The notes below the pieces were generated by a model, which was not told the DNA's origin, did no database searches, and saw nothing but the letters and a program-made list of their open reading frames with translations. A program made the translations under genes and the position numbers. DNA of 64,000 bases from Bacteroidia bacterium (GTDB lineage: Bacteria > Bacteroidota > Bacteroidia > DATLTG01): contig JBDTAC010000068.1 of assembly GCA_039924845.1 (NCBI GenBank), positions 925 through 64,924 on the forward strand. Direction: 5' to 3'. How positions within the stretch are numbered: position 1 is the first letter of the stretch; every line of letters starts with the position of its first letter. This document shows, piece after piece, positions 10,835 to 50,166 of the stretch.

Positions 10835-10953
10835 TCTTTTTTTATTCGATTTAGGATTCTGAAATTTAGGATTTAAAATTTCCAATCCAATTGTTAGTAT
10901 TAAATTTTTTTAAGAGAATTAAATCCTAAATGAGAAATCCTCAATCATTTATT

Positions 10954-33805: not shown

Positions 33806-33902
33806 AATAATGGAGAATTGACAATGGTTAATTGATAATTAAAAGGGAGTCTCTTTCTGAAATGATTCAGCATTTGATGTTGGGTGTTTAGAACTAACAG
33901 CC

Positions 33903-34090
33903 GCATAAATGCTCGATGCGATTGCATAAATGCTCAATCGGATTGCTATATCGTTCAGTCAGATTGAGTAAATGCTCAATCAGATTGCATTATCGCTCAG
34001 TCAGATTGGTTAAATGTTCACCGAAATTGCATTATCGCTCAGTCAGATTGAGTAAATGTTCAGCGAGATTGCATAATGTCCAGCGGGGGA
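33903..34090 (+). repeat. tandem array, ~8.5 copies of a 21-bp unit (42-bp super-period)
   Basis: Units: CATAAATGCTCAATCGGATTG / CATTATCGCTCAGTCAGATTG / AGTAAATGCTCAATCAGATTG ... each ending GATTG. Confidence 0.9.
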
Positions 34091-34287
34091 CAAAAAAGCA
34101 AATCCAATTTATCTCTGCTGGAGAGGGCAGGGGGAGAAAAATAGTTTGCTTATCATTTTCGATTGAATTACATTTACCAAGCTAAATTCATGCTCGTGAA
34201 GAAAATAATTTTTCAAGCCTCATTAATTACCTTCCTTTTTCCGAGCCTTAATTTCCTTCAAGCGCAAACCAAAATAGGTTCTAAAAA

Positions 34288-35190: not shown

Positions 35191-35195
35191 ATGTT

Positions 35196-35621
35196 ATGAA
35201 AAATAAATTACTATTTGGAATATTTTTTTTAACATTATTGTTCTGTGGATTTGTCCAATCCAAAAAGATTGACAATGGCTATTATATTCCAGGTCGTTAT
35301 AAAATGACGAAAACAAAAAGTAAAGATAAAAATTCGGATAGCGTGTTGGTAAGTGGAAAAATTTTCACCGAAAAAGGAGAATCCGCGTTTCAGGAACCTA
35401 TAAAATTTGAAGGTAAAACATCTTGGGATAATGAGAATTTATTTTCAGATGGCTGGAATTATGCAGATAGTACAGGATTTTTTAGCGTAAAAATAAAAAA
35501 AGGAACTTTCAAAATTCGATGTACATCTACTTGGGGTAAAATAACAACAAAAAAAATAAAATTTAATCCAAAATTTGCATATTACTTCATTATTTATTTA
35601 GGAGATTCTAAGGTGTATTAA
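35196..35621 (+). CDS. putative cognate immunity protein (secreted, carboxypeptidase-regulatory-like beta-sandwich)
   Basis: 141 aa; signal peptide (LLFGIFFLTLLFCG); immediately follows toxin cassette 1. Confidence 0.45.
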   Translation: MKNKLLFGIFFLTLLFCGFVQSKKIDNGYYIPGRYKMTKTKSKDKNSDSVLVSGKIFTEKGESAFQEPIKFEGKTSWDNENLFSDGWNYADSTGFFSVKIKKGTFKIRCTSTWGKITTKKIKFNPKFAYYFIIYLGDSKVY

Positions 35622-35677
35622 GGTAGTGTTCAGAATGTCACCTGCGTTTTTCTGTTCAAAAAAATAATTTTTCAGTA

Positions 35678-37234: not shown

Positions 37235-37318
37235 ACATGAAAAAATTAAGGGATAAACTAAAAAAATAGGACATTAGAAAAAAATGATTAGTACAAAAAG
37301 TGATTATTATAAATTTCA

Positions 37319-37810
37319 ATGTTTACGTCTAAATTTTTAAATCAAATGAAAATGCGAATATGCGTAATTCTGTTTTCAATATATTTTATTGGGTGCAAAA
37401 CCAATAATTCGAAAACAAATAATCTTAATTGTCCAGAATTTTATCCCGAAATTGAGCATGTTTATTGGGCAGAACAAGGATTTACAATACCATCTGATAC
37501 CTTACACGATTATTGGTATAGATTGATTACTTTTTCAGAGGAAGAAGGATTTTGTACCATTATAGAAGAACTGCGACAGGGAAAAGTTGAAGGAGCTGGT
37601 AAAATGCAAGTTGTTAAGCAAATAAATATTACACATGTAAAAGGAATAGAGAATGAAAATGGCATATCGTTAGATTATGATGTGAAAAAATGGATAAGCC
37701 CCAAAGAAGTTGTATTAATATTAGAGGAACAACCTAAAACGACAAATAATTATTCTTGCAAAATTGTAAATTTAGATAACTTATCCGTAAAAGATACGAC
37801 TCTAAAATAA
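37319..37810 (+). CDS. putative lipoprotein immunity protein for the M15-peptidase toxin
   Basis: 163 aa; lipobox-like ILFSIYFIGC; periplasmic localisation would match a cell-wall-targeting toxin. Confidence 0.45.
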   Translation: MFTSKFLNQMKMRICVILFSIYFIGCKTNNSKTNNLNCPEFYPEIEHVYWAEQGFTIPSDTLHDYWYRLITFSEEEGFCTIIEELRQGKVEGAGKMQVVKQINITHVKGIENENGISLDYDVKKWISPKEVVLILEEQPKTTNNYSCKIVNLDNLSVKDTTLK

Positions 37811-37875
37811 TGTTAGTGAGTAGTGCGATAGGTAGTGTTCCAATTTGCACCTGTCCTTTTTAAAAAATCAAAAAC

Positions 37876-38146
37876 GTATTTCAAAAAATAATTTTTCAAA
37901 CCAAAAAAGCATTTCAAAAAATAATTTTTCGGAGAAGAAAAATAAAAACTTGATTGAAAAAACGTATTTGAAAAAATAATTTTTCAAATCAAAAAACGGT
38001 TTCAAAAAATAATTTTTCAAACGAAAAACACATTTCAAAAAATAATTTTTCGGAGCAGCAAAATAAAAAATTGGAATAAAAAACCAGTTTCATAAAATAA
38101 TTTTTCAAACTAAAAAAAAGTTTTCAAAAAAATAATTTTCTGAACG
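37876..38146 (+). repeat. tandem array of about eight copies of the palindromic TTTCAAAAAATAATTTTTC motif with 10-35-bp A-rich spacers
   Basis: For example GTATTTCAAAAAATAATTTTTCAAACCAAAAAAGCATTTCAAAAAATAATTTTTCGGAG... repeated. A partial duplicate lies at 46311-46395. Confidence 0.9.
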
Positions 38147-38292
38147 AGAAAAAAAATGGTTTGCAAAAAAAAGTTTTTAAAAACCATTTCAGCCGTATCA
38201 GGGATGGTGTAGCTACAAGAAGGAGCAGCAGCAATTGACAATGGAGAATTAGTAATTAATAATTGATAATTACTAATTGCAGATTATTTGCA

Positions 38293-38402
38293 AGTCGCTT
38301 TTTCCTGATAGAAATTTAAACACAAAAACAATTTGGCAAAGTGTTATTGCCAACTGGCTCAACGAGAAAAAATACCGCTCGAACAAGTTCAATTATTGGC
38401 AG
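38293..38402 (+). pseudogene. decayed copy of the 3' end of the tyrosine recombinase gene 42554-43411
   Basis: About 110 bp (CGCTTTTTCCTGATAGAAATTTAAACACAAAAACAATTTGGCAAAGTGTTATTGCCAACTGGCTCAACGAGAAAAAA...CAATTATTGGCAGG) is about 90% identical to 43212-43320 but frameshifted. Fused to the following ORF. Confidence 0.65.
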
Positions 38403-39525
38403 GACGCTTTCCAATAAACGAGAAGCGTTTACAAAAGAATATGCCAAGCGATTAGAGCAGGTACAAATAGAATGCAAGGATGCGCTAAAAGTAATTGAGC
38501 AATACGATGGCAAGGATACTTTTTTTTATCTCGACCCACCCTATTTTAATTCCGACTGCGGACATTACAAAGGCTATACAGAACAAGACTACGAAAAGCT
38601 ATTACAAGCACTTGAAAAGATACAAGGTAAATTTCTACTGAGTAGTTATCCGTCCGAACTGCTCAATACCTACGTAACAAAAAACAACTGGCGCAAACAA
38701 GAAAAAGAACAAACGATACTTCTCAGTCATCAAACAAAAAAAAAGAAAACAGAAGTGATGGTTTATAGCTACGATGCGCTGCAACAAAAAATTCATACTC
38801 GCAAGCAAAAACAAGGGCTTCGGATAAAATATAGTGCTATAAAATGCTTGCACAAACAAAAAAAAGTGTCGTGGTTCGCAAGCATGAAAAACATCTATGA
38901 TGCGCGAGGGCAAGCCTTTCAGCCGACACCCTCAGATAAAGCGGTATTTAAAAAGCTCCATGCCTCTATGAACAATGGGATACGAAGTGCCAAATCTACC
39001 ACAGCAAAAAAGTGGTTGCAAAACAAATCTTTGAGTATAGAAAAGAGCGGAGCGGTATTTAATTCAGGACAAATCCATCATCGGAAAACCAAAGAATTTA
39101 TTGAAGAACTAAAAAGCATCGGATTTTTAATAGCATCCACCGCAGCTACCAATACAGGAGAAACAGGCTATTGTTGTTTTGGAAAAAACGCGATTCTTTT
39201 TCCACTACGTAACAAAGAAAACGAAGTGCTAAACTTTTATGCTATCGGCATTACAAAAGACAAACAGGAATATTTAAACAGCTTAGGACTTTATCCGAAC
39301 TACCCACATCCACAATGCAAACGCTTGTACCTAACAGAAACTATTTTGGATGCAGCTACACTTTTAGAATCCAATGTGATGGATAACAAAGAAGCTGTTC
39401 TCGCTTTGCACAACGGAGAAATGAGTAAAGAACATATCGAAGCGATAGAAGGATTAAATGACTTGGAAGAAATTATTTTAATTGAGAAATGTGGCTCTGC
39501 CACTGATTTACAAATTAAGAATTAA
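38341..39525 (+). CDS. chimeric/hypothetical ORF: C-terminal half of a D12-class N6-adenine DNA methyltransferase (DPPY motif) lacking its AdoMet-binding N-terminus, followed by an uncharacterised (possibly toprim-like) domain
   Basis: KDALKVIEQYDGKDTFFYLDPPYFNSDCGHYKGYTEQDYEKLLQALEKIQGKFLLSSY matches Dam-family motif IV and downstream region. Motif I (FxGxG) is absent; the recombinase fragment lies directly upstream. Confidence 0.45.
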   Translation: MLLPTGSTRKNTARTSSIIGRTLSNKREAFTKEYAKRLEQVQIECKDALKVIEQYDGKDTFFYLDPPYFNSDCGHYKGYTEQDYEKLLQALEKIQGKFLLSSYPSELLNTYVTKNNWRKQEKEQTILLSHQTKKKKTEVMVYSYDALQQKIHTRKQKQGLRIKYSAIKCLHKQKKVSWFASMKNIYDARGQAFQPTPSDKAVFKKLHASMNNGIRSAKSTTAKKWLQNKSLSIEKSGAVFNSGQIHHRKTKEFIEELKSIGFLIASTAATNTGETGYCCFGKNAILFPLRNKENEVLNFYAIGITKDKQEYLNSLGLYPNYPHPQCKRLYLTETILDAATLLESNVMDNKEAVLALHNGEMSKEHIEAIEGLNDLEEIILIEKCGSATDLQIKN

Positions 39526-39569
39526 GAATGCAGGATTAAGAATTACGAATTACAAAATGAAAATATAAA

Positions 39570-41414
39570 ATGGAAAACGAACAAATAATAAAGCAGCCTA
39601 TGGCTGTGGAAAACGAACAAACAATAGAACAGCCTGCGGCTGTGGAGGAGCAGATACGAGAGATAGGTGTAAGAGCCAAAGTTCAAAGAGTAGCAATTCC
39701 TGAAAAGGAAAACTTGAATGAATTTTATCAAAAATATGCCAGCGATGGAATTGCTAAACTCATTGCCTTGCCGCCACAGTTAAGAGTAGTGAATGAATAT
39801 AAATTGGTTTTAAGCAGGACGGAAAACGATTACAATGTATTGGGCGCGTTAGGTCAAGACTTGGGCAGTATGCAAATAACCTTGATGGTAGAAGAAAAAA
39901 AACACGGCAGAAAAGAAAGAGTAAAAATAGATTTATACGAGCGGCAACACCTCCTGCAATTTGCAGCACAAATCGCAGAACTGTTTCATCAAAACACTGC
40001 AGGCATAGAAAACGATTTAATCCTGCTGACGGATTTACTCGAAACTTTTCGAGAAAAACAAACAGAACAGGCACAGCCTGTTTTTAATAATAAAAGAAAT
40101 TACGCAGCCCTATTACCCGAAACAAAAAAAAATTGCGTAGCATTTTTGTCAAACAAAAATTTGATGCAAAACATAGACAAGCTGATTGAACAATCAGGCG
40201 TGGTAGGAGAAGAAAATAGTCGCAGACTTTTATTTGTTGTTGCTTCTACTTACAAGATGAAAGAAACACTTCATGTATTGGTTCAAGGAAACAGCGGAAG
40301 CGGAAAAAGTCATTTGATAAATACGATAGGACAATGCCTGCCGCAAGAAGATGTACTCAGTATGACACGAGTAACAAGTAAATCCTTTTACCATTACAAC
40401 AAAGAAGAACTGATGGATAAAGTTATCCTACTTCAAGATTATGATTCATTAGAAGAAGAAGCTGGATATGCTTTCAGAGAATTACAAAGCGCAGGAACGA
40501 TTCATTGTTCCACCACACAAAAGGATCGCACAGGAGCGATAGTATCAACGATGAAAACAGTCAAGAGCCATTTTGCTTCTTTGATAGCTACCACCCAAGC
40601 AGAAATGCACTACGATACCATGAACCGTTCTGTTATGATAGGCATAGACGAAAGCCAAGAACAAACAAAAAAAATAATGGAGTATCAACACAAAAAATTA
40701 GCAGGACACATAGACAGCAAAGAAGAAGAAAAAGCGAAATTTTTTTTACAAAATTGTATCAGAGCATTACAGCCGATGGAAGTTGTGAATCCGTATTCAG
40801 ATAAAATACAAATTCCGCTACAAGCTAAAACTATGCGAAGGCTACATACTCAGTACCAAGTTTTCATAAAACAAATCACGCTGTTGCATCAATACCAACG
40901 CAAGAAAGACGAACAAGGTAGATTAATCACTGAGGAACAAGACATAGAAATCGCGAGCCGAATTTTCTTTGATGCTATAATGATGAAAATAGATGACTTG
41001 GATTCTTCTCTCAGACATTTTTTTGATGAACTGAAAAACTATGTTACAACTATCAATAAAGAGAAACAGGCACAGGCACAGCCTGTTCTTTTATCCGAAC
41101 CAACAAAAAGCGAAAACGCGAATCAAACCGATAAAATAAATAGTCAGCCGCACAGCGGCATAGTCTTTACGCAAAGAGAAATTAGGCTTGCATTAAACCT
41201 AAGTAAAACACAATGCTTTCGGCAAATGGAAGAACTGGAAAAATTGGAATACGTGCAGAGAATAGGCGGTTATGCCAACAGAGGTTTTCAATACAAAATA
41301 ACCTATTGGGACGATATGAAAACCGAGAAAGAAAGAATTAAAAGCGCATTCTGCGCTTTTGGTGGTTCTTGGCGTTCCAAAGAGCTTGGAACGCCACCTC
41401 TTATGCAGCACTGA
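39570..41414 (+). CDS. P-loop NTPase, putative replication/mobilisation protein of the integrative element (primase-associated helicase-like / VirE-like)
   Basis: Walker A VQGNSGSGKSHL; Walker B-like VILLQDYDSLEE; C-terminal winged-helix-like region; N-terminal direct peptide repeat ENEQ(I/T)IEQP. Confidence 0.55.
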   Translation: MENEQIIKQPMAVENEQTIEQPAAVEEQIREIGVRAKVQRVAIPEKENLNEFYQKYASDGIAKLIALPPQLRVVNEYKLVLSRTENDYNVLGALGQDLGSMQITLMVEEKKHGRKERVKIDLYERQHLLQFAAQIAELFHQNTAGIENDLILLTDLLETFREKQTEQAQPVFNNKRNYAALLPETKKNCVAFLSNKNLMQNIDKLIEQSGVVGEENSRRLLFVVASTYKMKETLHVLVQGNSGSGKSHLINTIGQCLPQEDVLSMTRVTSKSFYHYNKEELMDKVILLQDYDSLEEEAGYAFRELQSAGTIHCSTTQKDRTGAIVSTMKTVKSHFASLIATTQAEMHYDTMNRSVMIGIDESQEQTKKIMEYQHKKLAGHIDSKEEEKAKFFLQNCIRALQPMEVVNPYSDKIQIPLQAKTMRRLHTQYQVFIKQITLLHQYQRKKDEQGRLITEEQDIEIASRIFFDAIMMKIDDLDSSLRHFFDELKNYVTTINKEKQAQAQPVLLSEPTKSENANQTDKINSQPHSGIVFTQREIRLALNLSKTQCFRQMEELEKLEYVQRIGGYANRGFQYKITYWDDMKTEKERIKSAFCAFGGSWRSKELGTPPLMQH

Positions 41415-41577
41415 GAAAAGCTCTTGGCGTTCCATAATTCCAAGAGTACATAGTTTACAGCAAGAATTAAAAATTAATTGAAAATGGATAATGGAGAATT
41501 GAAAATGAAAAAACACGAAACAAAAACACCGAACAAAAATTCTGCATTCTTAATTCTGAATCCTTAATTTAATAAAA

Positions 41578-42501
41578 ATGAAAAGCCTACCACTCTACAA
41601 CAAACAATACGAACAGTATTATCAAGATTTTGCAAAAGCATTGCAAACAAAAGGCTATGCTAAATCAGAAATGTATGCAGTAAGCGCACGTGAATTTTTA
41701 TTCTTTTTGGAAAGCAAAACTATTACAGACGTAAAACAGGTTAAAGCAAGCGATGTGATAGCATATTATGAATACTTAGGAGAAAGACCAAATAAACGCA
41801 GATTAGGCGGCTTGAGCAATTCAATGATAAGAGGACAGCTTTTTGCCCTACGCCTCTTTTTTGATTATTTGACGGATGTGGGTATCATAGAAGGTTCTCC
41901 TGCACGTTTACCAAAATTCAGTATCGGTAAAAATGGAGAAAGAGAAATGCTGAGTGTAGAAGAAACAAAAGAATTGTATCAGGCAACAAAAACAAAAAGA
42001 GAAAAAGCGATTCTATCGCTGGCTTATGGATGTGGATTGCGAAGAACAGAAATACAAAATTTGAATACGTCCGATGTACAATTGAGCAAAGGACTTTTAT
42101 TAGTTAGAGATGGAAAGAATCACAGAAGCAGAACTGTTCCACTTTCGGATAGTGTACTACAATCACTTCGAGAATATTTGATTTACGAAAGAGAACAATA
42201 CATCAACAGAAGACAAAAACACATCGAATCCTCTTTTATTTTAAACAATTCAGGATTAAGAATGCAAGGAGACAACTTGTACAAAGATTTGAAAGAAATT
42301 CTAAAAAGAACAACAATAAAAAAAGAAATCTGTTTGCACTCTCTACGTCATAGCATCGCTACTCACTTGCTTGACAAAGGAGCAGATATTGAATTTGTAA
42401 AGAATTTTTTGGGGCATCAAAGTATTGATACTTCACACATTTATTCCAAGCGCAGAAAGCAACAACTAAATTTTAAAATAGCGATTCACAGAAACAGCTA
42501 A
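41578..42501 (+). CDS. tyrosine site-specific recombinase (phage integrase/XerCD family)
   Basis: N-terminal SAM-like core-binding domain; catalytic residues R (GLRRTE), HxxR (HSLRHSIATHLL) and Y (SHIYSKR). Confidence 0.85.
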   Translation: MKSLPLYNKQYEQYYQDFAKALQTKGYAKSEMYAVSAREFLFFLESKTITDVKQVKASDVIAYYEYLGERPNKRRLGGLSNSMIRGQLFALRLFFDYLTDVGIIEGSPARLPKFSIGKNGEREMLSVEETKELYQATKTKREKAILSLAYGCGLRRTEIQNLNTSDVQLSKGLLLVRDGKNHRSRTVPLSDSVLQSLREYLIYEREQYINRRQKHIESSFILNNSGLRMQGDNLYKDLKEILKRTTIKKEICLHSLRHSIATHLLDKGADIEFVKNFLGHQSIDTSHIYSKRRKQQLNFKIAIHRNS

Positions 42502-42553
42502 TTGAAAATGGAGAATTGATAATTGAAAATTACAAATTGAAAAAGCGAAACAA

Positions 42554-43411
42554 ATGAAAACACTTGAAAATTATTTACACGAACAGCACCACACGGCACA
42601 AACGATTAAGAGTTATCTCTATACGGTTTCCGTCTTCCTCAGCTCACATCCGAAAGCCGATGAATACAAACATCAAGACATACTTAACTACATGAGCGAT
42701 GTTAGAAAATTCTATCCCGATACATATACTTCCAATACAGTACTTGCAGGTATAAAAAAGTATTATGATTATTTAATTGAAATCGGAAAAAGAAATTTTC
42801 ATCCGTGTAAAACGCTGTATTTAAAAAGCAAAAGAACAAGAGATATAATTCATCAAGATTTATTTTCAAGCAAAGAATTAGAAATACTGATGGAAAGAGA
42901 AGAGCGTTATGCTGACAACAAACTCAGAAATCAAACAATTGTATCCTTGCTGATTTATCAAGGACTAAGTGTTTCAGAAATTATACACTTAAAAACAGAA
43001 CACATCAATTTAGAAAATGGAATAATTTTTATCAAAGAAAGTAAGCAGCATTCTCAAAGGCATTTAGAGATTCATCCGAAACAATTTAATTTGCTTTACC
43101 GATTAATACACGAAGTAAAAAGAGAAGCACAGGTACAAACAGTACTCACAGGAAGCACAGGAAAACCGCTAAACAACGAACATTTCAATTATTTAATCTT
43201 TACCTATAAACCGCTTTTTCCTGATAGAAATTTAAACACAAAAACGATTCGTCAAAGTGTTATTGCTAACTGGCTCAACGAGAAAAAAATACCACTCGAA
43301 CAAGTTCAATTATTGGCAGGGCATCGCTGGACTTCTTCTACCGAACGATACAAACAAAATAATCTCAACGAACAAAGAACGCTTATCAATAAATGGTTTC
43401 CGTTAAATTAA
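42554..43411 (+). CDS. tyrosine site-specific recombinase (second, divergent paralogue)
   Basis: Integrase catalytic-domain pattern (LSVSEI ... R, HxxR-like GHRWTSSTERY). Its 3' 110-180 bp is repeated at 38293 and 46541. Confidence 0.8.
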   Translation: MKTLENYLHEQHHTAQTIKSYLYTVSVFLSSHPKADEYKHQDILNYMSDVRKFYPDTYTSNTVLAGIKKYYDYLIEIGKRNFHPCKTLYLKSKRTRDIIHQDLFSSKELEILMEREERYADNKLRNQTIVSLLIYQGLSVSEIIHLKTEHINLENGIIFIKESKQHSQRHLEIHPKQFNLLYRLIHEVKREAQVQTVLTGSTGKPLNNEHFNYLIFTYKPLFPDRNLNTKTIRQSVIANWLNEKKIPLEQVQLLAGHRWTSSTERYKQNNLNEQRTLINKWFPLN

Positions 43412-43420
43412 ATTTTACTT

Positions 43421-44347
43421 TTGTACTATGAATTAATTTTATTTCAAATGAAGGAGACACATTATTTAGCAGTTGAAACATCTAATATTACTGAGGATTG
43501 GGCTGATTTTTTAAATCAAAACAGGCTTACTAAATTAAATAAACACCCACAAACGATAGAGTTTGATATGCTTAATGTAAGATTTATTAAACCACATCAC
43601 GTTGTGTCATTAGCTTGTTTGATTGAAGAATATCATTTAAAAAAAATTGAAATTAGTTTCAAAAACACAAGTTCTAAAGGAGCGAAGTATTTGGAAAAAC
43701 TTAATTTTTTTCAATATTGGGAAGAAGGATTTAACAGAAAAGACTATAGACAAACACAAATAGGAACTGCATTTTGCCTTTGGAAATTACATCCTGAAAT
43801 GATAAGCCCTTATACTTCTATGTCGACAAATTATTATCGGAATCATTTTTTTAGCGGTAAAGATTTACAGCCGTTGGATACGGCTTTGGTAGAAATATTT
43901 AACAACATTATTGACCACGCACAATCAGAAGTGAGCGGATATGTTTTCACACAATATTATCCGAACAAAAACGAAATAGTATTGTCGATGTGTGATTTTG
44001 GTAAAGGAATTCCAAACACAATCAACACGTTTTTAAAACAAGAAGGGAAAGAACCTTTGACAGATGACGAAGCTTTGGAGAAAGCCTTCGAAAAAGGATT
44101 TTCCACAAAATCTACTCCACAGAACAGAGGTTTCGGGCTTAACAATGTTATCTCAGCTGTTAAAACGCTAAAAAGTGGTTTGACAATTACTTCAAATCAC
44201 GGATTTGTGGAACAAAATAGTACTTACTTTCGTAAAAGAGCCATCGCTAATAATTTTCCAGGTACTCAGATTGTAATTAAACTGAAAACAGAGAATCTAA
44301 GACCTCTTGAAACAGAAGAGATTTCCGAACAAGAATTTTATTTGTAA
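43421..44347 (+). CDS. GHKL-superfamily (histidine-kinase-like) ATPase with uncharacterised N-terminal domain
   Basis: N box NNIIDHA; G1 box DFGKGI; G2 box GFGLNN; no HisKA/DHp domain. Confidence 0.65.
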   Translation: MYYELILFQMKETHYLAVETSNITEDWADFLNQNRLTKLNKHPQTIEFDMLNVRFIKPHHVVSLACLIEEYHLKKIEISFKNTSSKGAKYLEKLNFFQYWEEGFNRKDYRQTQIGTAFCLWKLHPEMISPYTSMSTNYYRNHFFSGKDLQPLDTALVEIFNNIIDHAQSEVSGYVFTQYYPNKNEIVLSMCDFGKGIPNTINTFLKQEGKEPLTDDEALEKAFEKGFSTKSTPQNRGFGLNNVISAVKTLKSGLTITSNHGFVEQNSTYFRKRAIANNFPGTQIVIKLKTENLRPLETEEISEQEFYL

Positions 44348-44369
44348 CTTTGCAAAATATATATGCCCC

Positions 44370-44672
44370 ATGAACACTAAGACTGTAGTAATAAACCTGA
44401 TGGATACTGTTGCTGGTACAGCTACCACAACGGAGGGACTTGCTTTATACTTAGCGATGAGTAAAGCGATGGACACAGGCAAAAATGTAAAATTATCGCT
44501 AAAAGATTGCACTCCGTTATCGTCATCATTTCTTAATTCGACTTTCGGAGAATTGTATGACAGATACGGCTATGACAAGATTAAAGAACGTGTAGTCCTT
44601 ATAAATTATTTCCCATCTCACGCGATGGCAATTAAAAAATACCTGCAAGATTTGAATAATCTTGTTAGCTGA
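44370..44672 (+). CDS. STAS-like (DUF4325-type) small protein, partner of the upstream GHKL ATPase
   Basis: About 100 aa (MNTKTVVINLMDTVAGTATTTEGLALYLAMSKAMDTGKNVKLSLKDCTPLSSSFLNSTFGELY...). ATG 23 nt after the upstream stop; the track ORF uses an upstream TTG. Confidence 0.6.
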   Translation: MNTKTVVINLMDTVAGTATTTEGLALYLAMSKAMDTGKNVKLSLKDCTPLSSSFLNSTFGELYDRYGYDKIKERVVLINYFPSHAMAIKKYLQDLNNLVS

Positions 44673-44692
44673 TTTCTTGATTAAAATTGTTT

Positions 44693-44730
44693 AAAATCCA
44701 TTCTCAAAAGGAATGGATTTTTTATTTTTC
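44693..44730 (+). terminator. rho-independent terminator-like hairpin within the duplicated cassette leader
   Basis: AAAATCCATTC-TCAAAAG-GAATGGATTTT followed by TTATTTTTC; an identical element lies at 47430-47467. Confidence 0.7.
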
Positions 44731-44766
44731 ATGCAATTTATTTTGTATTTTTATCGAAAGAAAAAA

Positions 44767-45738
44767 ATGAAAAATACTTTTTCCATTTCAGTTAGTTTTT
44801 TTGAAACCTATACAGGAAGATTTAGTTTCGGCTTCAACGGAAAAGAAAAAGATAACGAGCTATACGGAACTGGAAACGCCTACGATTACGGCATGAGGAT
44901 GTACGATGCGAGATTGGGTAGGTTTATGAGTGTTGACCCTTTGACGGCAAAATATCCGATGCTAACACCTTTCCAATTTTCAAGTAATACGCCTATTGCA
45001 GGGATTGATAGAGATGGGCTAGAGTTTTATTATAAACCAAATGGACAATTTATAAAACGAATCGGTAAAAGTCAGCAAGTTTTTACAGCGGACGATGTAG
45101 AAGTTCAAAAGACTAAAACAGCTACAGTTTTCGTTCCAATAAATCCACGATCATTAAATATCAATCACTCTGAATTTATCAAATTTGCAGGTACTGCATA
45201 TGGAGAAAGTTCTGTCGGTGATAAAGTTTATAACAAAAAAGAAGTATGGGGAATAGCAAGTGCGATGTTGAATTATAAAAAAATTAGCGGGAAATCTGTT
45301 ATTGCTTACGCTTCAAGTAATCCAAACGCTCAGTTTAAAATATTTAGCAATACTTCAGACAAAGCAAGAAATGGAACATTTCAGCAAACTGCTATTGCTG
45401 GTGCAATTAATGCTTTGACAGATGGTGTAGATTACTCAAATGGTGGAACAAACTGGGCAGGAAATGACATTGCTAGCCCTAAAGAAAAATGGGCTGAAGG
45501 GTTACGTTTTTCCTCTCAAGCAGATAATTTATTTGGTTTAAAAAACAATGCTAAACCTGGCGTGGGATATTTTTTTAATAAAGCGGGAAAAGAAACTGGC
45601 ATACGAGGCACCTATGATTATAAATGGGAAACTACTGCTGCGTATGGAGGAATAGGAATAGGAGGTAAAACTTACGGAACTACATTTATGAAAGTTACAG
45701 ATGAATATAAAAAAGCAACAGGAGCGAAAGGGAATTAG
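44767..45738 (+). CDS. orphan RHS C-terminal cassette with uncharacterised toxin domain
   Basis: MKNTFSISVSFFETYTGRFSFGFNGKEKDNELYGTGNAYDYGMRMYDARLGRFMSVDPL...IAGIDRDGLE is the RHS core end with a DPxGL-type boundary. The following 240 aa are novel. The track ORF start at 44713 adds a leader-encoded artefact. Confidence 0.65.
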   Translation: MKNTFSISVSFFETYTGRFSFGFNGKEKDNELYGTGNAYDYGMRMYDARLGRFMSVDPLTAKYPMLTPFQFSSNTPIAGIDRDGLEFYYKPNGQFIKRIGKSQQVFTADDVEVQKTKTATVFVPINPRSLNINHSEFIKFAGTAYGESSVGDKVYNKKEVWGIASAMLNYKKISGKSVIAYASSNPNAQFKIFSNTSDKARNGTFQQTAIAGAINALTDGVDYSNGGTNWAGNDIASPKEKWAEGLRFSSQADNLFGLKNNAKPGVGYFFNKAGKETGIRGTYDYKWETTAAYGGIGIGGKTYGTTFMKVTDEYKKATGAKGN

Positions 45739-46264
45739 TACTTCATTTTGTTTTTTACTAATTGCCTTGCTTTTAAATTTGCCTTGTTTAGGACAAAAAA
45801 TTAGTATAAAAGATATTTCGAGCGAATTTCTTATGGGCTCCTCGATTGAGGATTCCTCATTGGATGTGTTTACTCGCCCCGACTCAATCCAATTTAGTTT
45901 ATCGTATAATCATATTTATAATACGAGTAAAGGGAAAACAGATTATTTTATCGTTAATCAGGATTCGTTATTTATCAACGTTGGACTTATTTACGACAAA
46001 GGATTAATGTTTGTTTATCAAGGAATATATAACAGCGACACAGTACGAAACAGTAACGTTAATTTTGTTTTATTCAAATCCCAATTAGAAGGATGCAATA
46101 GTGGTTTATGTGAGTTTAATTATTATTATTTAATAGAATTAGATGATGAACAAAAAGTTTCAAATTCGATTGAATACCTTTCAAAAGATGATAATATAAA
46201 AGACATTGTGGTAATTATGGATAATATCATCTTTACAAAAGGAATTTGTAACTGGGACAAGTAG
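45701..46264 (+). CDS. putative immunity protein (secreted)
   Basis: 187 aa with signal-like FCFLLIALLLNLPCLG; follows cassette 3. Start uncertain: it overlaps the toxin end by 38 nt. Confidence 0.4.
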   Translation: MNIKKQQERKGISTSFCFLLIALLLNLPCLGQKISIKDISSEFLMGSSIEDSSLDVFTRPDSIQFSLSYNHIYNTSKGKTDYFIVNQDSLFINVGLIYDKGLMFVYQGIYNSDTVRNSNVNFVLFKSQLEGCNSGLCEFNYYYLIELDDEQKVSNSIEYLSKDDNIKDIVVIMDNIIFTKGICNWDK

Positions 46265-46540
46265 GTAGTGTTGGTAGTGTTCCAATTTGCACCTGAGCTT
46301 TTTAATTCATAAAATAATTTTTCAAACGAAAAAAAAGTTTTCAAAAAATAATTTTCTGAACGAAAAAAAAGAGTTTGCAAAAAAAAGTTTTTGAAAACCA
46401 TTTCAGCCGTATCAGGGATAGCGTAGCCAAGAGGGGAAGCAGAGCAATGGACCATTCAGCCCCACCTAAATCCTCCCCAAAGGAGAGGACTTAAAAGAAA
46501 AAAAAATTGGAAATGATTTTGCCGATTGGAATTTCAAATT

Positions 46541-46719
46541 GCTAACCGAAAACAATTCCACAAAGTGTTATTGCTAATTGGCTGAACGAGAAAAAAATAT
46601 TCTTAGAACAGGTTCAATTATTAGCAGGTCATCGCTGGACTTCTTCTACCGAACGCTACAAACAAAATAATTTAAACGAACAAAGAACGCTTATCAATAA
46701 ATGGTTTCCGTTAAATTAA
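46541..46719 (+). pseudogene. second decayed copy of the tyrosine recombinase 3' end, retaining the stop codon
   Basis: About 180 bp is about 90% identical to 43235-43411 (…SVIANWLNEKKIFLEQVQLLAGHRWTSSTERYKQNNLNEQRTLINKWFPLN*) with no upstream gene body. Confidence 0.7.
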
Positions 46720-46786
46720 AAAAATGAAAAATTGTAAAATGGAATGAAATTTTCGATATTTTTGTAATAGTTAAAAGACAGTAAGT

Positions 46787-47233
46787 ATGCGTGTATATAT
46801 TGACACATCGGTTATAGGAGGATATTTTGATGAAGAATTTGAAGAATGGACAATCAAGTTATTTAAGGAGTTTGAAAAGCGAACGAAAATTCCTGTGGTT
46901 TCTGATTTAACTATTCAAGAACTCGAAAATGCACCAAAGCATATTATGACATTTTTTGAATCAATAAAAACGGAACGAATTTTGTTAGATACTGAGAGCA
47001 TACAATTAGCGAGGAATTATATTAAGGAGAAAGCAATAACAGCTAAATCCTTTAACGATGCATTACATATTGCAACAGCAACAGTTAATCGTTTGGATGT
47101 TCTTGTTAGCTGGAATTTTAAGCATATTGTAAACTTGGATAGAATTAGGCTGTATAACGCTGTAAATTTAAAAAATGGTTATCCATTAATGGAGATAAGA
47201 ACTCCAAGAGAAATTTTAACTAAAAATGAATAA
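46787..47233 (+). CDS. PIN-domain protein (VapC-like ribonuclease toxin)
   Basis: MRVYIDTSVIGG with acidic residues at the conserved PIN positions (D6; E/D in the ELE region; DALHIATA). Confidence 0.75.
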   Translation: MRVYIDTSVIGGYFDEEFEEWTIKLFKEFEKRTKIPVVSDLTIQELENAPKHIMTFFESIKTERILLDTESIQLARNYIKEKAITAKSFNDALHIATATVNRLDVLVSWNFKHIVNLDRIRLYNAVNLKNGYPLMEIRTPREILTKNE

Positions 47234-47398
47234 GAAAATGAAAACGGGAAAGAAAAAATTTGATGCTGTGCAAATGACACGGGACATCAGAAACAAAATG
47301 GGTGAAAAGTACTATCAAAGCATAGACCTTTTATTGAAGGATATGGAGAAGGTGCGAAAAAAATATAAAATTACGTCTAAGACACAAAAAGCTGCTTA
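47228..47398 (+). CDS. small basic ORF (56 aa) overlapping the PIN gene stop; possible partner/antitoxin
   Basis: ATGA overlap with the PIN stop codon; MNKKMKTGKKKFDAVQMTRDIRNKMGEKYYQSIDLLLKDMEKVRKKYKITSKTQKAA. Below the ORF-track length cut-off. Confidence 0.35.
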
Positions 47399-47429
47399 GT
47401 ACTATATTTATTCTTGATTAAAATTGTTT

Positions 47430-47467
47430 AAAATCCATTCTCAAAAGGAATGGATTTTTTATTTTTA
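47430..47467 (+). terminator. rho-independent terminator-like hairpin (duplicate of 44693-44730)
   Basis: AAAATCCATTC-TCAAAAG-GAATGGATTTTTTATTTTT. Confidence 0.7.
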
Positions 47468-47503
47468 ATACAACTTTTTTTGTATTTTTATCAAAAGAAA
47501 AAA

Positions 47504-48376
47504 ATGAAAAATAATTTTTCTATTTCAGTTAGTTTTGTTGAAACCTATACAGGAAGATTTAGGTTCGGATTAAGTGGAATGGAGAAAGACGATGAGATTT
47601 ATGGCACTGGAAACGCCTACACCACCGAGTTTAGAGAACTGGACACCCGTTTAGGTGGCAGGTGTTGGAGCTTAGACACGAAAACAAAAGCAGGGGAATC
47701 TCCTTATGTTGGTTTTGGTGATAATCCGATTGTTTACTGCGATCCTTTTGGTAAGGATACATTGCCTTCAAGTAGTAGCGGCTTACCTTTAAAAAATTTG
47801 AAACCAGTATCAATAGTGGCAGATAGACCAAAACCGCCTCCTACTGAAAGTGAAGTTCCTCAGTCTGCACAAAATGCTATTTTAGGAGATACGGTAAGTT
47901 TTGCTAAGAATAATGGAGAATCTTTGGATTTAATTGGTGATTTAGGTTCTGGTTTAAAAGAAACAGCCAAAATAGTAAAAAATAGCCATGTTGCAGCAGT
48001 AGTAGGATATGCAGGAGATGGATTGAATTTTATAGGCTACGGAGGCGACATTCTTAATTTTGAGGCTAATAGAGAAGATTACGTAAGTGGAGAAATAAGT
48101 GGCAAAAGATTTGCCTACAAAACAACAGGAACTGTTCTTTCGGTTGGAACGGACTTAGCAGTTTCTTATGGATTATTAGAGTCAATAGGGATTGGGGCAG
48201 GAATCGGTTCAACAGGATTTGACCCTGCTGGTGCTTTATTAGGAGGAGCTGTAGGAGGACTTTTCTGGTTAGGAGAAAAAGCGTACGATCATCTTCCAAA
48301 AAAATCTTCAAAAGAATATTCAAAAGAATCTCAAGAATTTGAAAAGATTATTACAAGTAATCATTTTATACTATAA
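47504..48376 (+). CDS. orphan RHS C-terminal cassette with glycine-zipper (putative membrane-disrupting) toxin domain
   Basis: MKNNFSISVSFVETYTGRFRFGLSGMEKDDEIYGTGNAYTTEFRELDTRLGGRCWSLD...DPFGKD, then a Gly-rich GxxxG segment (GIGAGIGSTGFDPAGALLGGAVGGLFWLG). Confidence 0.65.
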   Translation: MKNNFSISVSFVETYTGRFRFGLSGMEKDDEIYGTGNAYTTEFRELDTRLGGRCWSLDTKTKAGESPYVGFGDNPIVYCDPFGKDTLPSSSSGLPLKNLKPVSIVADRPKPPPTESEVPQSAQNAILGDTVSFAKNNGESLDLIGDLGSGLKETAKIVKNSHVAAVVGYAGDGLNFIGYGGDILNFEANREDYVSGEISGKRFAYKTTGTVLSVGTDLAVSYGLLESIGIGAGIGSTGFDPAGALLGGAVGGLFWLGEKAYDHLPKKSSKEYSKESQEFEKIITSNHFIL

Positions 48377-48385
48377 ACAGAGGCT

Positions 48386-48907
48386 GTGGACTCCTCGTTA
48401 AAACATAAAAACATTATGACCTTAAAAATTACCCTTAAAAACCAATTCGATGCCTTTAACTATCAAATTTTTGGGATTGTTATAATGGGTATTTATTTAT
48501 ATTTTTTTCCAGGTTTAGGATACTTAATAGCACTTACTTGTGGATGGTTATTTTCTGCTCTTCCTGCCATTTATTTACATATAGAATATTACTTAAGAAA
48601 CAAAGGAGAAGAAATTACCATAAATTTTGACGAACTAATTGTGAAAAAAAATGGTGTTGAAAAAAAATACAAAAACCAAGATTTTGAAAAAATAGTTGTG
48701 TACATGGCAGTATCGTACAATTTCGCCATTATAGGAATGCAGTATTATTTTTACACTCGCCTTATCACAACAAAAGGAGAAGAAATTATCATCACTTGTT
48801 TAATGACTCGAAAGATGGAAGAAGTATTAAAAACATTGGGTGCTCCTTATAAAATTAGTAGACTGCCCCTTTTTTACAGCTTGCGTTTTGGTCGGTTAAA
48901 AAAATAA
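48386..48907 (+). CDS. putative membrane immunity protein
   Basis: 173 aa with at least two TM helices (IFGIVIMGIYLYFFPGLGYLIALTCGWLFSALPAIYL); immediately downstream of cassette 4. Confidence 0.45.
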   Translation: MDSSLKHKNIMTLKITLKNQFDAFNYQIFGIVIMGIYLYFFPGLGYLIALTCGWLFSALPAIYLHIEYYLRNKGEEITINFDELIVKKNGVEKKYKNQDFEKIVVYMAVSYNFAIIGMQYYFYTRLITTKGEEIIITCLMTRKMEEVLKTLGAPYKISRLPLFYSLRFGRLKK

Positions 48908-50166
48908 TTTTTCAACCACCAATTATTGGAGAAAAAACAAGTTTCAAAAAATAATTTTTTCGAAAGCACTTTCTCAACAGATGCAATGACAGCATTTGCA
49001 ACGGTTTTGACTTGGTCATCTGTTAAATCATAAAAAACAGGCAAGGATATTTCACGCGAATAATTATCGAATGTAACAGGATAGTTTTTTACATCATATC
49101 CAAGCGATTTGTAAAAACTCATCATCGGAACGGGAATAAAATGCACGTTCACGGAAACATCTAAATCAAAAATAGATTGAATGATTTCGTCGCGTTGTGG
49201 TTCCGTAATTCCTTTTATCCGCAAAGGATATAAATGGAAGGAAGAAGTTTTCTCATTTGTATTTTGTTCTGGAATTTCTGCCCATTTGTGTTTGGAAAGG
49301 TATTGATTGTAAACAGAAATAATGTGTTTCCGTTTTACTAAGGTGTCGTTTTTATAACGCGCTAATTCTACTCTGCCAATGGATGCTGCGATGTCCGTCA
49401 TGTTGCATTTATAGCCGGGTTCTACAATATCGTAGCGCCAATTTCCTTTTTGTGATTTTGCCAGCGCATCTTTATTTTGTCCGTGCAAAGATTTTATGCA
49501 AAGCGATTGATACAAACTATCGTTATCAAAAGGAGCGGGAAAATTCAGTGCAATGGCGCCACCTTCGGCAGTAGTTAAATTTTTTACGGCATGAAAAGAA
49601 AAGACCGAAACATCTGTTAAACTGCCCGATGTACGGTTTTTATAAATCGCGCCAAACGAATGTGCTGCATCTGCGAGAATTAAAATACGACCTAATTTTT
49701 TTTGTTCTAAAGTATCTCCCGAAAATTTATTTTTCAAACGAATGACTAATTCATTTAATTCATCGTAATCACATGGAAATCCACCAAAATCCACTGGCAT
49801 AATTACTTTTGTTTTGGATGTAATTGCTTTTTCAATCGCAGAAATGGAAATATTAAAATCATTTTTATTCACATCCACAAAAACAGGAGTAGCGCCGCAG
49901 TGCATAATTACATTGGCAGTAGCGGCATACGTATAAGCTGGAAGAATAACTTCGTCGCCGGCTTTTACACCAAACCAACGCAACATTAATTCCATGCCTG
50001 CCGTAGCCGAATTTAAACACAGCGTGCTTTTGTTGCCGCAATAGTGTGTTATTTCTTTCTCGAAAAATTTTGTTTTCGGACCGGTGGTAATCCAGCCAGA
50101 TTGCAAGGCGAGCGTTACTTCGTCGATTATTTTTTGGTCGATGTGCGGAGGCGAAAATGGGATCAT
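48874..50166 (-). CDS. DegT/DnrJ/EryC1/StrS-family PLP-dependent sugar aminotransferase (ArnB-like)
   Basis: Start at MIPFSPPHIDQKIIDEV; PLP-lysine region (SFHAVKNLTTAEGGAI). The last ~25 codons are encoded by two copies of the palindromic motif (…KKLFFETCFFSNNWWLKNYFFNRPKRKL). Confidence 0.85.
   Translation of the reverse strand: MIPFSPPHIDQKIIDEVTLALQSGWITTGPKTKFFEKEITHYCGNKSTLCLNSATAGMELMLRWFGVKAGDEVILPAYTYAATANVIMHCGATPVFVDVNKNDFNISISAIEKAITSKTKVIMPVDFGGFPCDYDELNELVIRLKNKFSGDTLEQKKLGRILILADAAHSFGAIYKNRTSGSLTDVSVFSFHAVKNLTTAEGGAIALNFPAPFDNDSLYQSLCIKSLHGQNKDALAKSQKGNWRYDIVEPGYKCNMTDIAASIGRVELARYKNDTLVKRKHIISVYNQYLSKHKWAEIPEQNTNEKTSSFHLYPLRIKGITEPQRDEIIQSIFDLDVSVNVHFIPVPMMSFYKSLGYDVKNYPVTFDNYSREISLPVFYDLTDDQVKTVANAVIASVEKVLSKKLFFETCFFSNNWWLKNYFFNRPKRKL

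Follow-up and report, generated by a model that had tools for sequence, protein, structure and literature searches.

Two kinase–substrate switches are the closest described relatives of the locus considered here. VapK, VapS and the PIN toxin VapC constitute the toxin–antitoxin system VapKSC, which is activated by ssDNA and acts against phages (Chambers et al., EMBO J 2026, PMC13373217; PDB 9Z7O). CapK and CapS are DNA-damage-activated regulators of immune operons (PMC13373217; PDB 9Z71-9Z73). The switch of a GHKL kinase and its STAS substrate links phage infection or DNA damage with two outputs, which are a repressor in the case of CapS and a PIN toxin in the case of VapC (PMC13373217). An aromatic residue, F54 of VapK and W68 of CapK, was reported to stack on the activating ssDNA, and the C-terminal helix of VapS (residues 94-116) is required for inhibition of VapC (PMC13373217). 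The published VapKSC survey retained three-gene loci only (PMC13373217), and therefore a two-gene clade was not described there; we found no description of the two-gene form in the literature. The PIN.4 group of VapC proteins has been noted as 'transcriptionally coupled to DUF4325 genes' (Matelska et al., NAR 2017, PMC5499597), which looks like the VapS–VapC coupling of VapKSC.

We analysed a stretch of 64,000 nucleotides from a Bacteroidia bacterium (contig JBDTAC010000068.1), below called the window. It contains a two-gene operon, whose genes are named A and B.

43448..44347, forward strand: gene A, VapK-like protein of 299 amino acids (Pfam, AF2, Foldseek, family profile, hhalign against VapK)
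44370..44672, forward strand: gene B, VapS-like single-domain STAS protein of 100 amino acids, DUF4325 (Pfam, profile against PDB, AF2, Foldseek)

The original prediction held that this pairing was not an assigned system. This has to be amended, as both proteins are homologous to VapK and VapS of VapKSC and related to CapK/CapS; it remains true of the toxin-less two-gene clade. On balance, the pair is probably a kinase–substrate switch of the VapK/VapS (CapK/CapS) type that is transcribed on its own and spreads horizontally, with the mechanism and role proposed below.

The open frame around gene A spans 43421-44347 on the forward strand. The likely start is the ATG at 43448, as homologues have the same start position in the family alignment. 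The 299-aa product is identical to the NCBI protein 'ATP-binding protein [Bacteroidia bacterium]'. Its domains and motifs are as follows.

A, residues ~1-95: N-terminal STAS-like domain
A, residues ~85-135: aromatic-rich linker
A, residues ~135-285: C-terminal GHKL serine-kinase domain
43583..43585, forward strand: codon F46, aligned with VapK F54 in the hhalign register and with CapK W68
43892..43918, forward strand: N box E149-IFNNIID-H157 with the Mg-ATP-binding Asn N153, on invariant columns
43994..44011, forward strand: G1 box D183-FGKGI-188, with D183, G185 and G187 invariant
44123..44140, forward strand: G2 box, or ATP lid, N226-RGFGL-231, with N226, G228 and G230 invariant

The N, G1 and G2 boxes predicted in the frame 43421-44347 (NNIIDHA, DFGKGI, GFGLNN) are present and lie on invariant columns of an alignment of 52 sequences, the invariant residues being E149, N153, D156, H157, D183, G185, G187, N226, G228 and G230. 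Pfam searches, proposed together with that prediction, detected both expected domains, namely HATPase_c (8.8e-7; HATPase_c_2 at 1.4e-5) in A and DUF4325 in B. They found no HisKA/DHp domain in A, as predicted, and no HTH; the STAS strand begins at residue 4 in the AF2 model (pLDDT 92.5, pTM 0.90). Foldseek matched A to the CpxA CA domain, SpoIIAB (TM 0.67-0.71) and the SulP STAS domain 3mgl, and its C-terminal domain groups with SpoIIAB, RsbW and histidine-kinase CA domains; the Foldseek E-values are weak, no better than 4e-4 for A and 0.08 for B. The family profile of A matched the prestin STAS domain at E 0.0027 and CheA and histidine-kinase CA domains at 1e-4. The N-terminal region, previously described as having no recognizable function, can now be assigned: the N-terminal ~130 residues are a STAS-like domain by Foldseek, the family profile and hhalign against VapK.

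Hhalign aligned A33-277 with VapK 41-286 (99.4%, E 8.8e-22, 229 columns), covering both domains, and BLASTP gave 31% identity at E 8e-16. The two kinases have the same STAS plus GHKL architecture without an HTH. Residues E149, N153 and H157 of A align with E156, N160 and H164 of VapK. The aromatic residue involved in ssDNA activation is kept as well, F46 of A corresponding to VapK F54; it is present in at least 90% of the 52 homologues. However, the A clade has conserved motifs of its own, aromatic ones in the linker between the STAS and kinase domains and LACLIEEY in the STAS helix (52-sequence alignment). The linker is conserved within the clade and, by hhalign, is not common to VapK. Since the linker is the expected sensing groove, the activating ligand may differ.

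The ATG of gene B is located at 44370, 22 nt past the stop codon of A, and the product belongs to the Pfam family DUF4325 'STAS-like' (1.5e-8), in agreement with the ~100-aa STAS-like protein predicted just downstream of A. The AF2 model (pLDDT 88.8) contains a single STAS domain; neither Pfam nor the model revealed a winged helix or any other DNA-binding domain. The top Foldseek matches are RsbS, RsbV (TM 0.62) and SpoIIAA. A search with the single B sequence yielded only two proteins, and homologues were therefore harvested from the loci and searched with a profile. The only real match of the 60-sequence profile in PDB was 9z7o_A, 'Escherichia VapS' (E 1.3e-11), whereas the CapS structures in PDB were not matched. 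The relatives of B are 87-125 aa long (best 120 of 273). Like VapS, B is a small DUF4325 STAS protein encoded just 3' of the kinase with Ser or Thr in the same loop.

44520..44537, forward strand: candidate phospho-acceptor loop of B, S51-S52-S53-F54-L55-N56 (conservation and HMM alignment to VapS)

Position 52 is Ser or Thr and position 53 is Ser in all 74 sequences. S52 aligns with VapS S48 (HMM alignment; VapS numbering per SEQRES/DBREF). S53 directly precedes the conserved Phe, the pair S53-F54 being the counterpart of CapS S54-F55.

The switch mechanism is well supported, and by analogy with the described systems it would operate as follows. Protein A, a STAS plus GHKL serine/threonine kinase, would probably be activated by ssDNA or a similar nucleic-acid cue produced during phage infection or DNA damage. 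The cue would bind in the groove between the STAS and kinase domains, where F46 and the aromatic-rich linker are located. Active A would phosphorylate B at S52 or S53, at the start of the second long helix, and this would break the protein–protein interface of unphosphorylated B, as in VapS, CapS, SpoIIAA and RsbV. The partner at this interface would be neither a VapC toxin nor DNA in the two-gene clade, and thus may be either A or some conserved protein of the host or a phage whose gene lies elsewhere. If it is A, the pair would form a classical partner switch, with B occupying the anti-sigma-like kinase until phosphorylated. Once freed from B, the kinase would bind or phosphorylate a cellular target.

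As to the output, a target outside the operon is a possible route that we would place short of probable; that A itself is the effector is somewhat doubtful, and the rest of our expectation falls on something else. The lack in B of both known output devices, the C-terminal helix of VapS and the wHTH of CapS, counts against the explanation. The most likely role would be that of an accessory stress or anti-phage (abortive-infection-like) module, or of a mobile-element stabiliser; for the two-gene form a defence function is what we infer. One possibility, rather unlikely in our estimate, is that the two genes suffice as a minimal immune or abortive-infection system without a dedicated toxin, the kinase being both sensor and effector and curbed by its STAS substrate. 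Phosphorylation of the substrate would set the kinase acting on a target, cellular or phage, that is universally conserved. Both the spread of the pair on its own across phyla, prophages and plasmids and the repeated knock-outs of the kinase gene would then be accounted for. The locus represents a third, large branch of the kinase–STAS switch, without either known output. Identification of the target of B or A could reveal a new effector logic of bacterial immunity or a new readout of DNA damage by mobile elements, and would provide a function for DUF4325 genes now annotated merely as 'STAS-like domain-containing protein'. Since only two small proteins are involved, the question lends itself to direct tests.

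No VapC gene was found next to the pair, either in the window or in the 105 related two-gene pairs from all DNA collected; among the loci only L015, L106-L109 and L115 have VapC (tblastn and a 3-sequence VapC HMM). This distinguishes the operon from VapKSC. B ends ~9 residues past the STAS core, whereas VapS continues for ~26 more residues that form the VapC-inhibiting helix; the median length of B is 99 aa in the two-gene clade vs 114-125 aa in the VapC loci. The 105 pairs separate cleanly from true vapKSC kinases, with profile scores of at least 138 bits vs at most 111 bits. By sequence comparison, A–B is an effector-less relative of VapK/VapS forming a distinct two-gene clade.

The homology to VapK/VapS combined with the absence of VapC could also mean that the pair is a decaying remnant of vapKSC that has lost its toxin gene, and the nonsense and frameshift mutations seen in some A genes agree with that. 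This explanation is largely refuted and we regard it as very improbable, given the clean separation of the clade, the consistently shorter B and the invariant catalytic and acceptor residues. The clade also spans Bacteroidota, phages of Firmicutes and a Burkholderia phage. Both genes are under purifying selection, dN/dS being ~0.1 for A and B alike in unsaturated comparisons. The mutations themselves, independent nonsense or frameshift events in A at 6 of 67 loci, were counted in favour of the kinase–substrate switch.

The pairing is strict. Wherever the downstream sequence sufficed, the A homologue was followed by a B homologue, giving 74 distinct pairs and B sequences in genomes. No conserved third gene was found when 990 neighbouring ORFs from 67 dereplicated loci were clustered, nor by Pfam analysis of ten same-strand downstream genes. 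In 37 of 63 loci the gene 3' of B is encoded on the other strand, and the downstream genes that share its strand are mutually unrelated. The pair is usually its own transcription unit with its own promoter. The consensus of the Bacteroidetes -7 promoter element is TAnnTTTG. Within -150..+30 of the start of the A ORF it occurs in 26 of 64 related loci vs 10.8% of background windows; the matches near A mostly cluster 20-30 nt upstream in the related loci. The match in the window is conserved in L009, the closest relative. The signals and boundaries around the pair are listed below.

41578-42501 and 42554-43411: two tyrosine recombinase genes upstream of A
43212..43419, forward strand: 3' end of the recombinase-2 gene, forming the left boundary of the slot; repeated at 46508-46726 (remnant) and 38296-38403
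43416..43423, forward strand: TACTTTTG, match to the -7 element TAnnTTTG, 25-32 nt upstream of the A ATG
44674..44883, forward strand: 210-nt leader of Rhs orphan cassettes, forming the right boundary of the slot; repeated at 47411-47620 (89%) and 34195-34404 (63%)
44693-44721, forward strand: hairpin of 12 bp followed by a T-run, resembling an intrinsic terminator, after B; part of the repeated Rhs-cassette leader

The original prediction had placed the pair, as cargo, between recombinase genes and toxin cassettes. The flanks are as described; the toxin cassettes downstream are orphan Rhs cassettes, accompanied by a PIN gene. However, the pair is not cargo of the recombinase-bearing element: it fills a repeat-bounded slot adjoining that element. 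The same junctions are kept in L009, and a paralogous slot in the window holds the PIN gene and a small ORF. The predicted terminator right after B is indeed there, but it belongs to the repeated 210-nt leader, which begins 2 nt past the stop codon of B. GC content does not set the region apart as foreign. The PIN gene (46787-47233, 2.1 kb downstream) was considered as a displaced VapC and rejected, as it matched neither the VapC of 9Z7O nor the VapC profile. Thus, unlike in the PIN.4 group, there is no PIN–DUF4325 coupling at A–B: the PIN gene of the window is in a different slot and not of the VapKSC type.

As in CapK/CapS, a STAS-bearing GHKL kinase precedes a STAS substrate, and like capKS the pair is often found immediately 3' of restriction-modification (R-M) operons. 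Six of 67 loci have type I R-M genes within 10 kb, which in L007, L085 and L087 immediately precede the pair in the same orientation. An Rhs cassette follows B in the window, L009 and L042. One could therefore suppose a regulator of the CapK/CapS kind, controlling the adjoining operon, upstream R-M or downstream Rhs cassettes, upon DNA damage. We consider this improbable. A lacks the N-terminal HTH of CapK, B is a bare 100-aa STAS domain without the winged-helix DNA-binding domain of CapS, and its profile does not detect CapS in PDB. Nor is the pair positioned upstream of an immune operon in the CapKS manner: there is no conserved downstream operon, the next gene being usually on the opposite strand or unrelated, and B is followed by a terminator.

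The predicted resemblance to RsbW/RsbV was borne out: Foldseek places the C-terminal domain of A with SpoIIAB/RsbW and B with RsbS/RsbV/SpoIIAA, and SpoIIAB/SpoIIAA and RsbW/RsbV are the best or near-best structural matches of the two proteins. A has the same GHKL serine-kinase fold and N box (ExxxNxIxH) as SpoIIAB, and B, like SpoIIAA and RsbV, is a single-domain STAS substrate with a phosphorylatable Ser opening a helix. On these grounds the pair might be a housekeeping partner switch controlling a sigma factor encoded elsewhere, as is also suggested by ECF sigma factor genes within 10 kb in 6 of 67 loci, and by a chromosomal site that is conserved across species in Hymenobacter and Flavobacterium (some Flavobacteriaceae). 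However, the extra N-terminal STAS domain and linker of A (299 aa vs 132-141 aa in the matched SpoIIAB chains) are absent from anti-sigma kinases. Switches of the RsbW/RsbV type have a cognate sigma factor, and usually a PP2C phosphatase, in their operon or regulon. No sigma factor is linked to the pair consistently, the positions of the ECF genes being scattered, and the clustering of the 990 neighbouring ORFs produced no conserved neighbour such as a PP2C phosphatase and no conserved phosphatase cluster. A consistent location of the pairs in housekeeping sigma-factor operons, which the original prediction held to speak against a defence role, was not found; the contexts vary, and among them are prophage ends, a P2-phage hotspot, plasmids, R-M, Abi and integrase genes. 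Such accessory and mobile contexts, rather than a developmental or stress regulon, together with the patchy distribution and the repeated knock-outs of the kinase, make a housekeeping switch as improbable as the CapKS-like regulator.

Relatives are distributed patchily, 207 being found among 185,579 species represented by one genome each. The two-gene branch comprises 358 clusters at 50% identity (E ≤ 1e-30) and occurs in Bacteroidota, Streptococcus prophages, a P2-like Burkholderia phage, plasmids and viral contigs, including 17 IMG/VR viral contigs. In Streptococcus prophages the pair is located at the prophage end, after the lysin. In the P2-like Burkholderia phage vB_E188 it lies between the integrase and the BrnTA/portal genes. 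Hymenobacter plasmids carry the pair, on one of them near an integrase, and tyrosine integrases occur within 10 kb in 9 of 67 loci. A DUF4325 gene following a 293-aa ORF was listed between the repressor and integrase genes in a paper on a Francisella prophage; tblastn with A did not recover that pair.

These contexts, together with the position directly 3' of two tyrosine recombinase genes, the junctions kept in L009 and the toxin–antitoxin-like PIN module in the sister slot, would fit a module for maintenance or induction of the carrier element. Serving the element, such a module would detect ssDNA or DNA damage; it would either control excision or induction, or stabilise the recombinase/Rhs-cassette array by addiction. 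The Francisella listing agrees with this reading, with the reservation just given. Still, we consider it unlikely, if less so than the two regulatory readings above. B lacks a DNA-binding domain, recombinase genes are missing from the surroundings of most loci, and in Streptococcus prophages the pair lies at the far end of the prophage, that of the lysis module, a place typical of accessory genes. Addiction also requires a toxic component, and toxicity of A–B is only hypothetical.

The preferred reading of the pair as a mobile kinase–substrate switch agrees with its occurrence, like that of VapKSC, near defence genes and on mobile elements. The neighbourhood survey suggested with the original prediction gave a mixed answer about defence islands. 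R-M, Abi and integrase genes are often adjacent, and at L114 both AbiGi and an R-M gene adjoin the pair. However, in many cases the locus is a small islet adjoining housekeeping genes (gltX, mfd, icmF), and neither defence nor mobile genes were detected in its vicinity; this, like the cross-species conservation of the site in Hymenobacter and Flavobacterium, weighs against the preferred reading. PADLOC-DB v2.0.0 has no system-specific model for either protein: A gave only a domain-level match to the DrmA model PDLC02567 (positions 136-276 of 1750), and B a weak, non-significant match to Cas11f (E 0.0057). Among the neighbours at 33 sampled loci, strong PADLOC matches were type I, IIG and III R-M, PrrC, HEC-01A, PDC-M65 and PDC-S01; the proteins were pooled, so these are family counts and not system calls or per-locus rates. 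Matches to mad3 were discounted as possible cross-matches to Mfd-like helicases.

At L015 a complete vapKSC operon adjoins the pair; the two are separate and divergently oriented. A natural fusion of the kinase and its substrate is encoded on a Nostoc plasmid, with the SSSF motif kept.

The two same-strand ORFs of the original prediction, here called A and B, are real, and a candidate terminator does follow the pair:

43421 (TTG) or 43448 (ATG) to 44347, plus strand: ORF A, 299 aa in the ATG version
44370-44672, plus strand: ORF B, 100 aa, separated from the stop codon of A by 22 nt
44693-44721, 3' of B: terminator-like hairpin

The 299-aa version of A is identical to the NCBI protein 'ATP-binding protein [Bacteroidia bacterium]', and its start agrees with the homologue starts in the family alignment. 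In Pfam, A matches HATPase_c (8.8e-7) and HATPase_c_2 and contains no HisKA domain, and B matches DUF4325, 'STAS-like domain' (1.5e-8); both results agree with what had been proposed. The additional NCBIfam matches, to histidine kinases and SpoIIAB, are weak. The predicted N, G1 and G2 boxes of A coincide with invariant columns of a 52-member alignment (E149, N153, D156, H157, D183, G185, G187, N226, G228, G230). A Bacteroidetes-type -7 promoter box (TAnnTTTG) is found at 43416-43423. The pair is preceded by two tyrosine recombinase genes and followed by orphan Rhs cassettes and a PIN gene.

The AlphaFold2 model of A, computed from the family alignment, has two domains (pLDDT 92.5, pTM 0.90). 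In PDB, Foldseek pairs the C-terminal domain with histidine-kinase CA domains and the anti-sigma kinase SpoIIAB (TM 0.67-0.71 relative to target) and, less strongly, with the mycobacterial anti-sigma F factor (8ih8). The N-terminal domain matches the SulP STAS domain 3mgl (94 columns, rmsd 3.2 Å), and by sequence the family profile matches the prestin STAS domain (residues 16-88, E 0.0027) as well as CheA/HK CA domains (1e-4). Thus the N-terminal region, for which no function had been proposed, is a STAS domain. The model of B (pLDDT 88.8) is most similar to RsbS, RsbV (TM 0.62), SpoIIAA and SLC26 STAS domains, with weak E-values. The GHKL domain of A (43448-44344) also matches positions 136-276 of 1750 in the PADLOC model PDLC02567 of DrmA (DISARM) with E 3e-11, which points to an N-terminal GHKL domain in this model, related to the kinase family of A.

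The pairing had been considered not to be an assigned system; systems of this kind were published in 2026 (Chambers et al., EMBO J 2026, PMC13373217). In the CapK/CapS system, ssDNA activates the HTH-STAS-GHKL kinase CapK via W68, and the repressor CapS, with STAS and wHTH domains, is phosphorylated on S54. VapK, a STAS-GHKL protein with F54, phosphorylates the antitoxin VapS (a STAS domain with a C-terminal helix) on S48, which releases the PIN toxin VapC. The VapS tail 94-116 is needed for VapC inhibition, and the VapKSC operon protected E. coli against phage Bas42 (PMC13373217). We took the VapK, VapS and VapC sequences from the supplementary structure files of that paper. A aligns with VapK over both domains (hhalign 99.4%, E 8.8e-22, 229 columns), with 31% identity over the kinase domain in BLASTP. 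The B-family profile has one real entry in PDB, 9z7o_A 'Escherichia VapS' (E 1.3e-11), and does not match CapS there. By sequence, A is homologous to VapK in both of its domains, and B to VapS.

F46 of A is aligned with F54 of VapK, and S52 of B, which is Ser or Thr in 74/74 B sequences, with S48 of VapS. The adjacent S53 (Ser in 74/74) occupies the Ser-before-Phe position of CapS S54. These comparisons give good support to A being a SpoIIAB/VapK-type serine kinase that binds ATP, with B as its substrate and S52 or S53 as the probable acceptor, and the kinase-substrate step itself is highly probable. By analogy with its relatives, the activator of A would be ssDNA bound in the groove between the STAS and GHKL domains, F46 being conserved. 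However, only the A clade has the linker motifs FFxYWxxGFxR and LCLWK and the helix LACLIEEY, and thus the activating cue could differ from that of VapK. In CapS, VapS and classical STAS antagonists the unphosphorylated serine lies in a protein interface which is broken by phosphorylation; the partner at such an interface of B would have to be A or a protein encoded elsewhere. Unlike CapK/CapS, the A-B branch has no DNA-binding domain, and a CapKS-like regulatory role of the pair seems quite improbable.

No VapC was found by tblastn and a three-sequence VapC profile next to the two-gene pairs or the pair in the window. The same searches found VapC only in genuine vapKSC loci, namely on a Deinococcus plasmid, on four viral contigs and in one further related locus, L015. 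Against the A profile, 138 bits is the lowest score among the 105 pairs lacking VapC, in which B has a median length of 99 aa; the six kinases of vapKSC loci reach 111 bits at most, and the VapS proteins there have 114-125 aa. Thus B lacks the VapC-inhibiting tail. That the pair is a decayed vapKSC operon is extremely unlikely. What is new here is an abundant branch, without toxin and without DNA-binding domain, of an already published kind of system. It is not described by Chambers et al., as their survey retained only loci with all three genes (PMC13373217); a literature search found no other paper describing this clade, and PADLOC has no model for the pair.

In L015 (7485-11220) a complete minus-strand vapKSC operon (VapK 9243-8443, VapS 8361-8032, VapC 7976-7485) adjoins a divergently oriented two-gene pair (10001-11220), so both paralogous systems coexist in one island. 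The Nostoc cf. commune plasmid pANSO36B (L116, 1914-3158) encodes a 414-aa natural fusion of a STAS–GHKL kinase with a C-terminal VapS/B-like STAS domain; the latter keeps the ISSSF motif, and a DUF5895 gene is next.

A word-indexed search found 62 full-length A homologues. When one genome per species was scanned, 207 relatives emerged; the top 80 are nearly all from Bacteroidota, with three from Streptococcus. In an exhaustive HMMER search of 1.84 billion representatives, 358 clusters passed E ≤ 1e-30, and a threshold of E ≤ 1e-10 gave 3,513. Where a locus extends far enough downstream, another ORF begins -20 to +141 nt after the A homologue; it has 87-122 aa, apart from a single ATG-limited call of 70 aa, and all 74 distinct sequences of this ORF (74/74) are B homologues. 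There are 273 B relatives at E ≤ 1e-5; the 120 listed have 87-125 aa and are named solely 'STAS-like/DUF4325 domain-containing protein'. Unsaturated comparisons give a dN/dS ratio of about 0.1 for A and B alike. Across the genomic loci compared, the pair is a conserved unit. Both proteins match PHROGs families of unknown function, phrog_3364 (2e-42) and phrog_9989.

In 67 dereplicated loci, no conserved third gene adjoins the pair. The gene after B is encoded on the other strand in 37/63 cases, and same-strand downstream genes are mutually unrelated (NMN transporter, Rpe, P450, HTH protein). The TAnnTTTG box occurs near the start of A in 26/64 loci, compared to 10.8% of background windows, mostly 20-30 nt upstream. 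Recurrent neighbours are tyrosine integrases (9/67 loci), type I R-M genes (6/67; in L007, L085 and L087 they immediately precede the pair in the same orientation) and housekeeping genes marking insertion points (gltX, ybeY, gidA, mfd, icmF). In several species of some lineages the same housekeeping gene is immediately upstream: mfd in L034, L062 and L024, gltX in L031, L033, L040 and L067, icmF in L014, L017 and L028. This suggests lineage-specific vertical inheritance or preferred insertion points. A housekeeping partner switch is a distinctly unlikely role.

The neighbours within 6 kb in 33 loci, scanned with PADLOC in two pools, include very strong matches to type I, IIG and III R-M, PrrC, HEC-01A, PDC-M65A/B and PDC-S01. 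AbiGi and an R-M gene adjoin a 55%-identical A homologue. Mobile elements carry the two-gene form as well: it follows the lysin at the end of prophages of Streptococcus agalactiae and S. dysgalactiae, lies between integrase and BrnTA/portal genes of a P2-like Burkholderia phage, and is present on Hymenobacter plasmids and on 17 IMG/VR contigs. A mobile stress or anti-phage switch is the most likely role of the pair, proposed with moderate confidence; a mobile-element sensor or addiction module is possible, but unlikely.

A is broken in 6/67 loci, all from Flavobacteriaceae, by independent mutations at different positions: nonsense in L050, L057 and L068 (codons 52, 73 and 155), frameshifts near codons 48-64 in L058, L076 and L082. 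Each has a single stop codon or frameshift in an otherwise well conserved A, and an intact B ORF was called in each of the five loci checked for it (L050, L057, L058, L076 and L082). This fits an accessory, possibly costly gene, though some of these loci are from MAGs; Tamlana sp. I1 and Maribacter chungangensis, which account for two of the six, are isolates.

In the window, repeat analysis places the pair in a slot with exact boundaries:

to 43419: left boundary, last ~200 nt of the recombinase-2 gene, repeated at 46508-46726 (remnant) and 38296-38403
from 44674: right boundary, 210-nt Rhs-cassette leader, terminator included, repeated at 47411 and 34195
46787-47399: sister slot between copies of both repeats, toxin-first PIN gene (148 aa) and basic 57-aa ORF with 8-nt overlap, instead of A-B

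The PIN gene (46787-47233) was rejected as a VapKSC-type VapC, as it matches neither the VapKSC VapC sequence nor the VapC profile.

The nearest relative (L009, 70% identity, another Bacteroidia MAG) likewise has the recombinase 3' end followed by A, B and the Rhs leader, though its toxin tip differs; in another locus, L042, an Rhs cassette follows B. The segment 38296-43320 (~4.9 kb) is flanked by a 108-nt direct repeat of 95-97% identity (38296-38403, 43212-43320). It contains a D12-methylase/DnaG-like fusion ORF (38341-39525), a 614-aa P-loop protein (39570-41414) and two tyrosine recombinases, and looks like a separate small integrative element inserted in the 3' end of a recombinase gene. 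The pair would then lie beside this element, not inside it. The prediction of cargo between recombinase genes and toxin cassettes describes the flanks correctly, but the recombinase-bearing element is adjacent to the pair.

The region 33800-49000 is a repeated array. Its unit consists of a tyrosine recombinase gene or ~200-nt 3' remnant, a small two-gene module (A-B, 43448-44672, or PIN with the 57-aa ORF), an orphan Rhs toxin tip with a putative immunity gene, and A/T-rich 33/55-nt repeats:

34288-35190 with following ORFs; 44713-45738 and 45701-46264; 47450-48376 and 48386-48907: Rhs tips and putative immunity genes
37865-38194, 46311-46442, 48932-48959: A/T-rich repeats

Such an arrangement resembles a cassette array of polymorphic toxins associated with recombinases. 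Tandem repeats of 21 nt occur at 33903-34070, in the intergenic region after a SpoU methylase gene, and at 35666-35896, within the ORF 35678-37234, where they encode 7-residue protein repeats.
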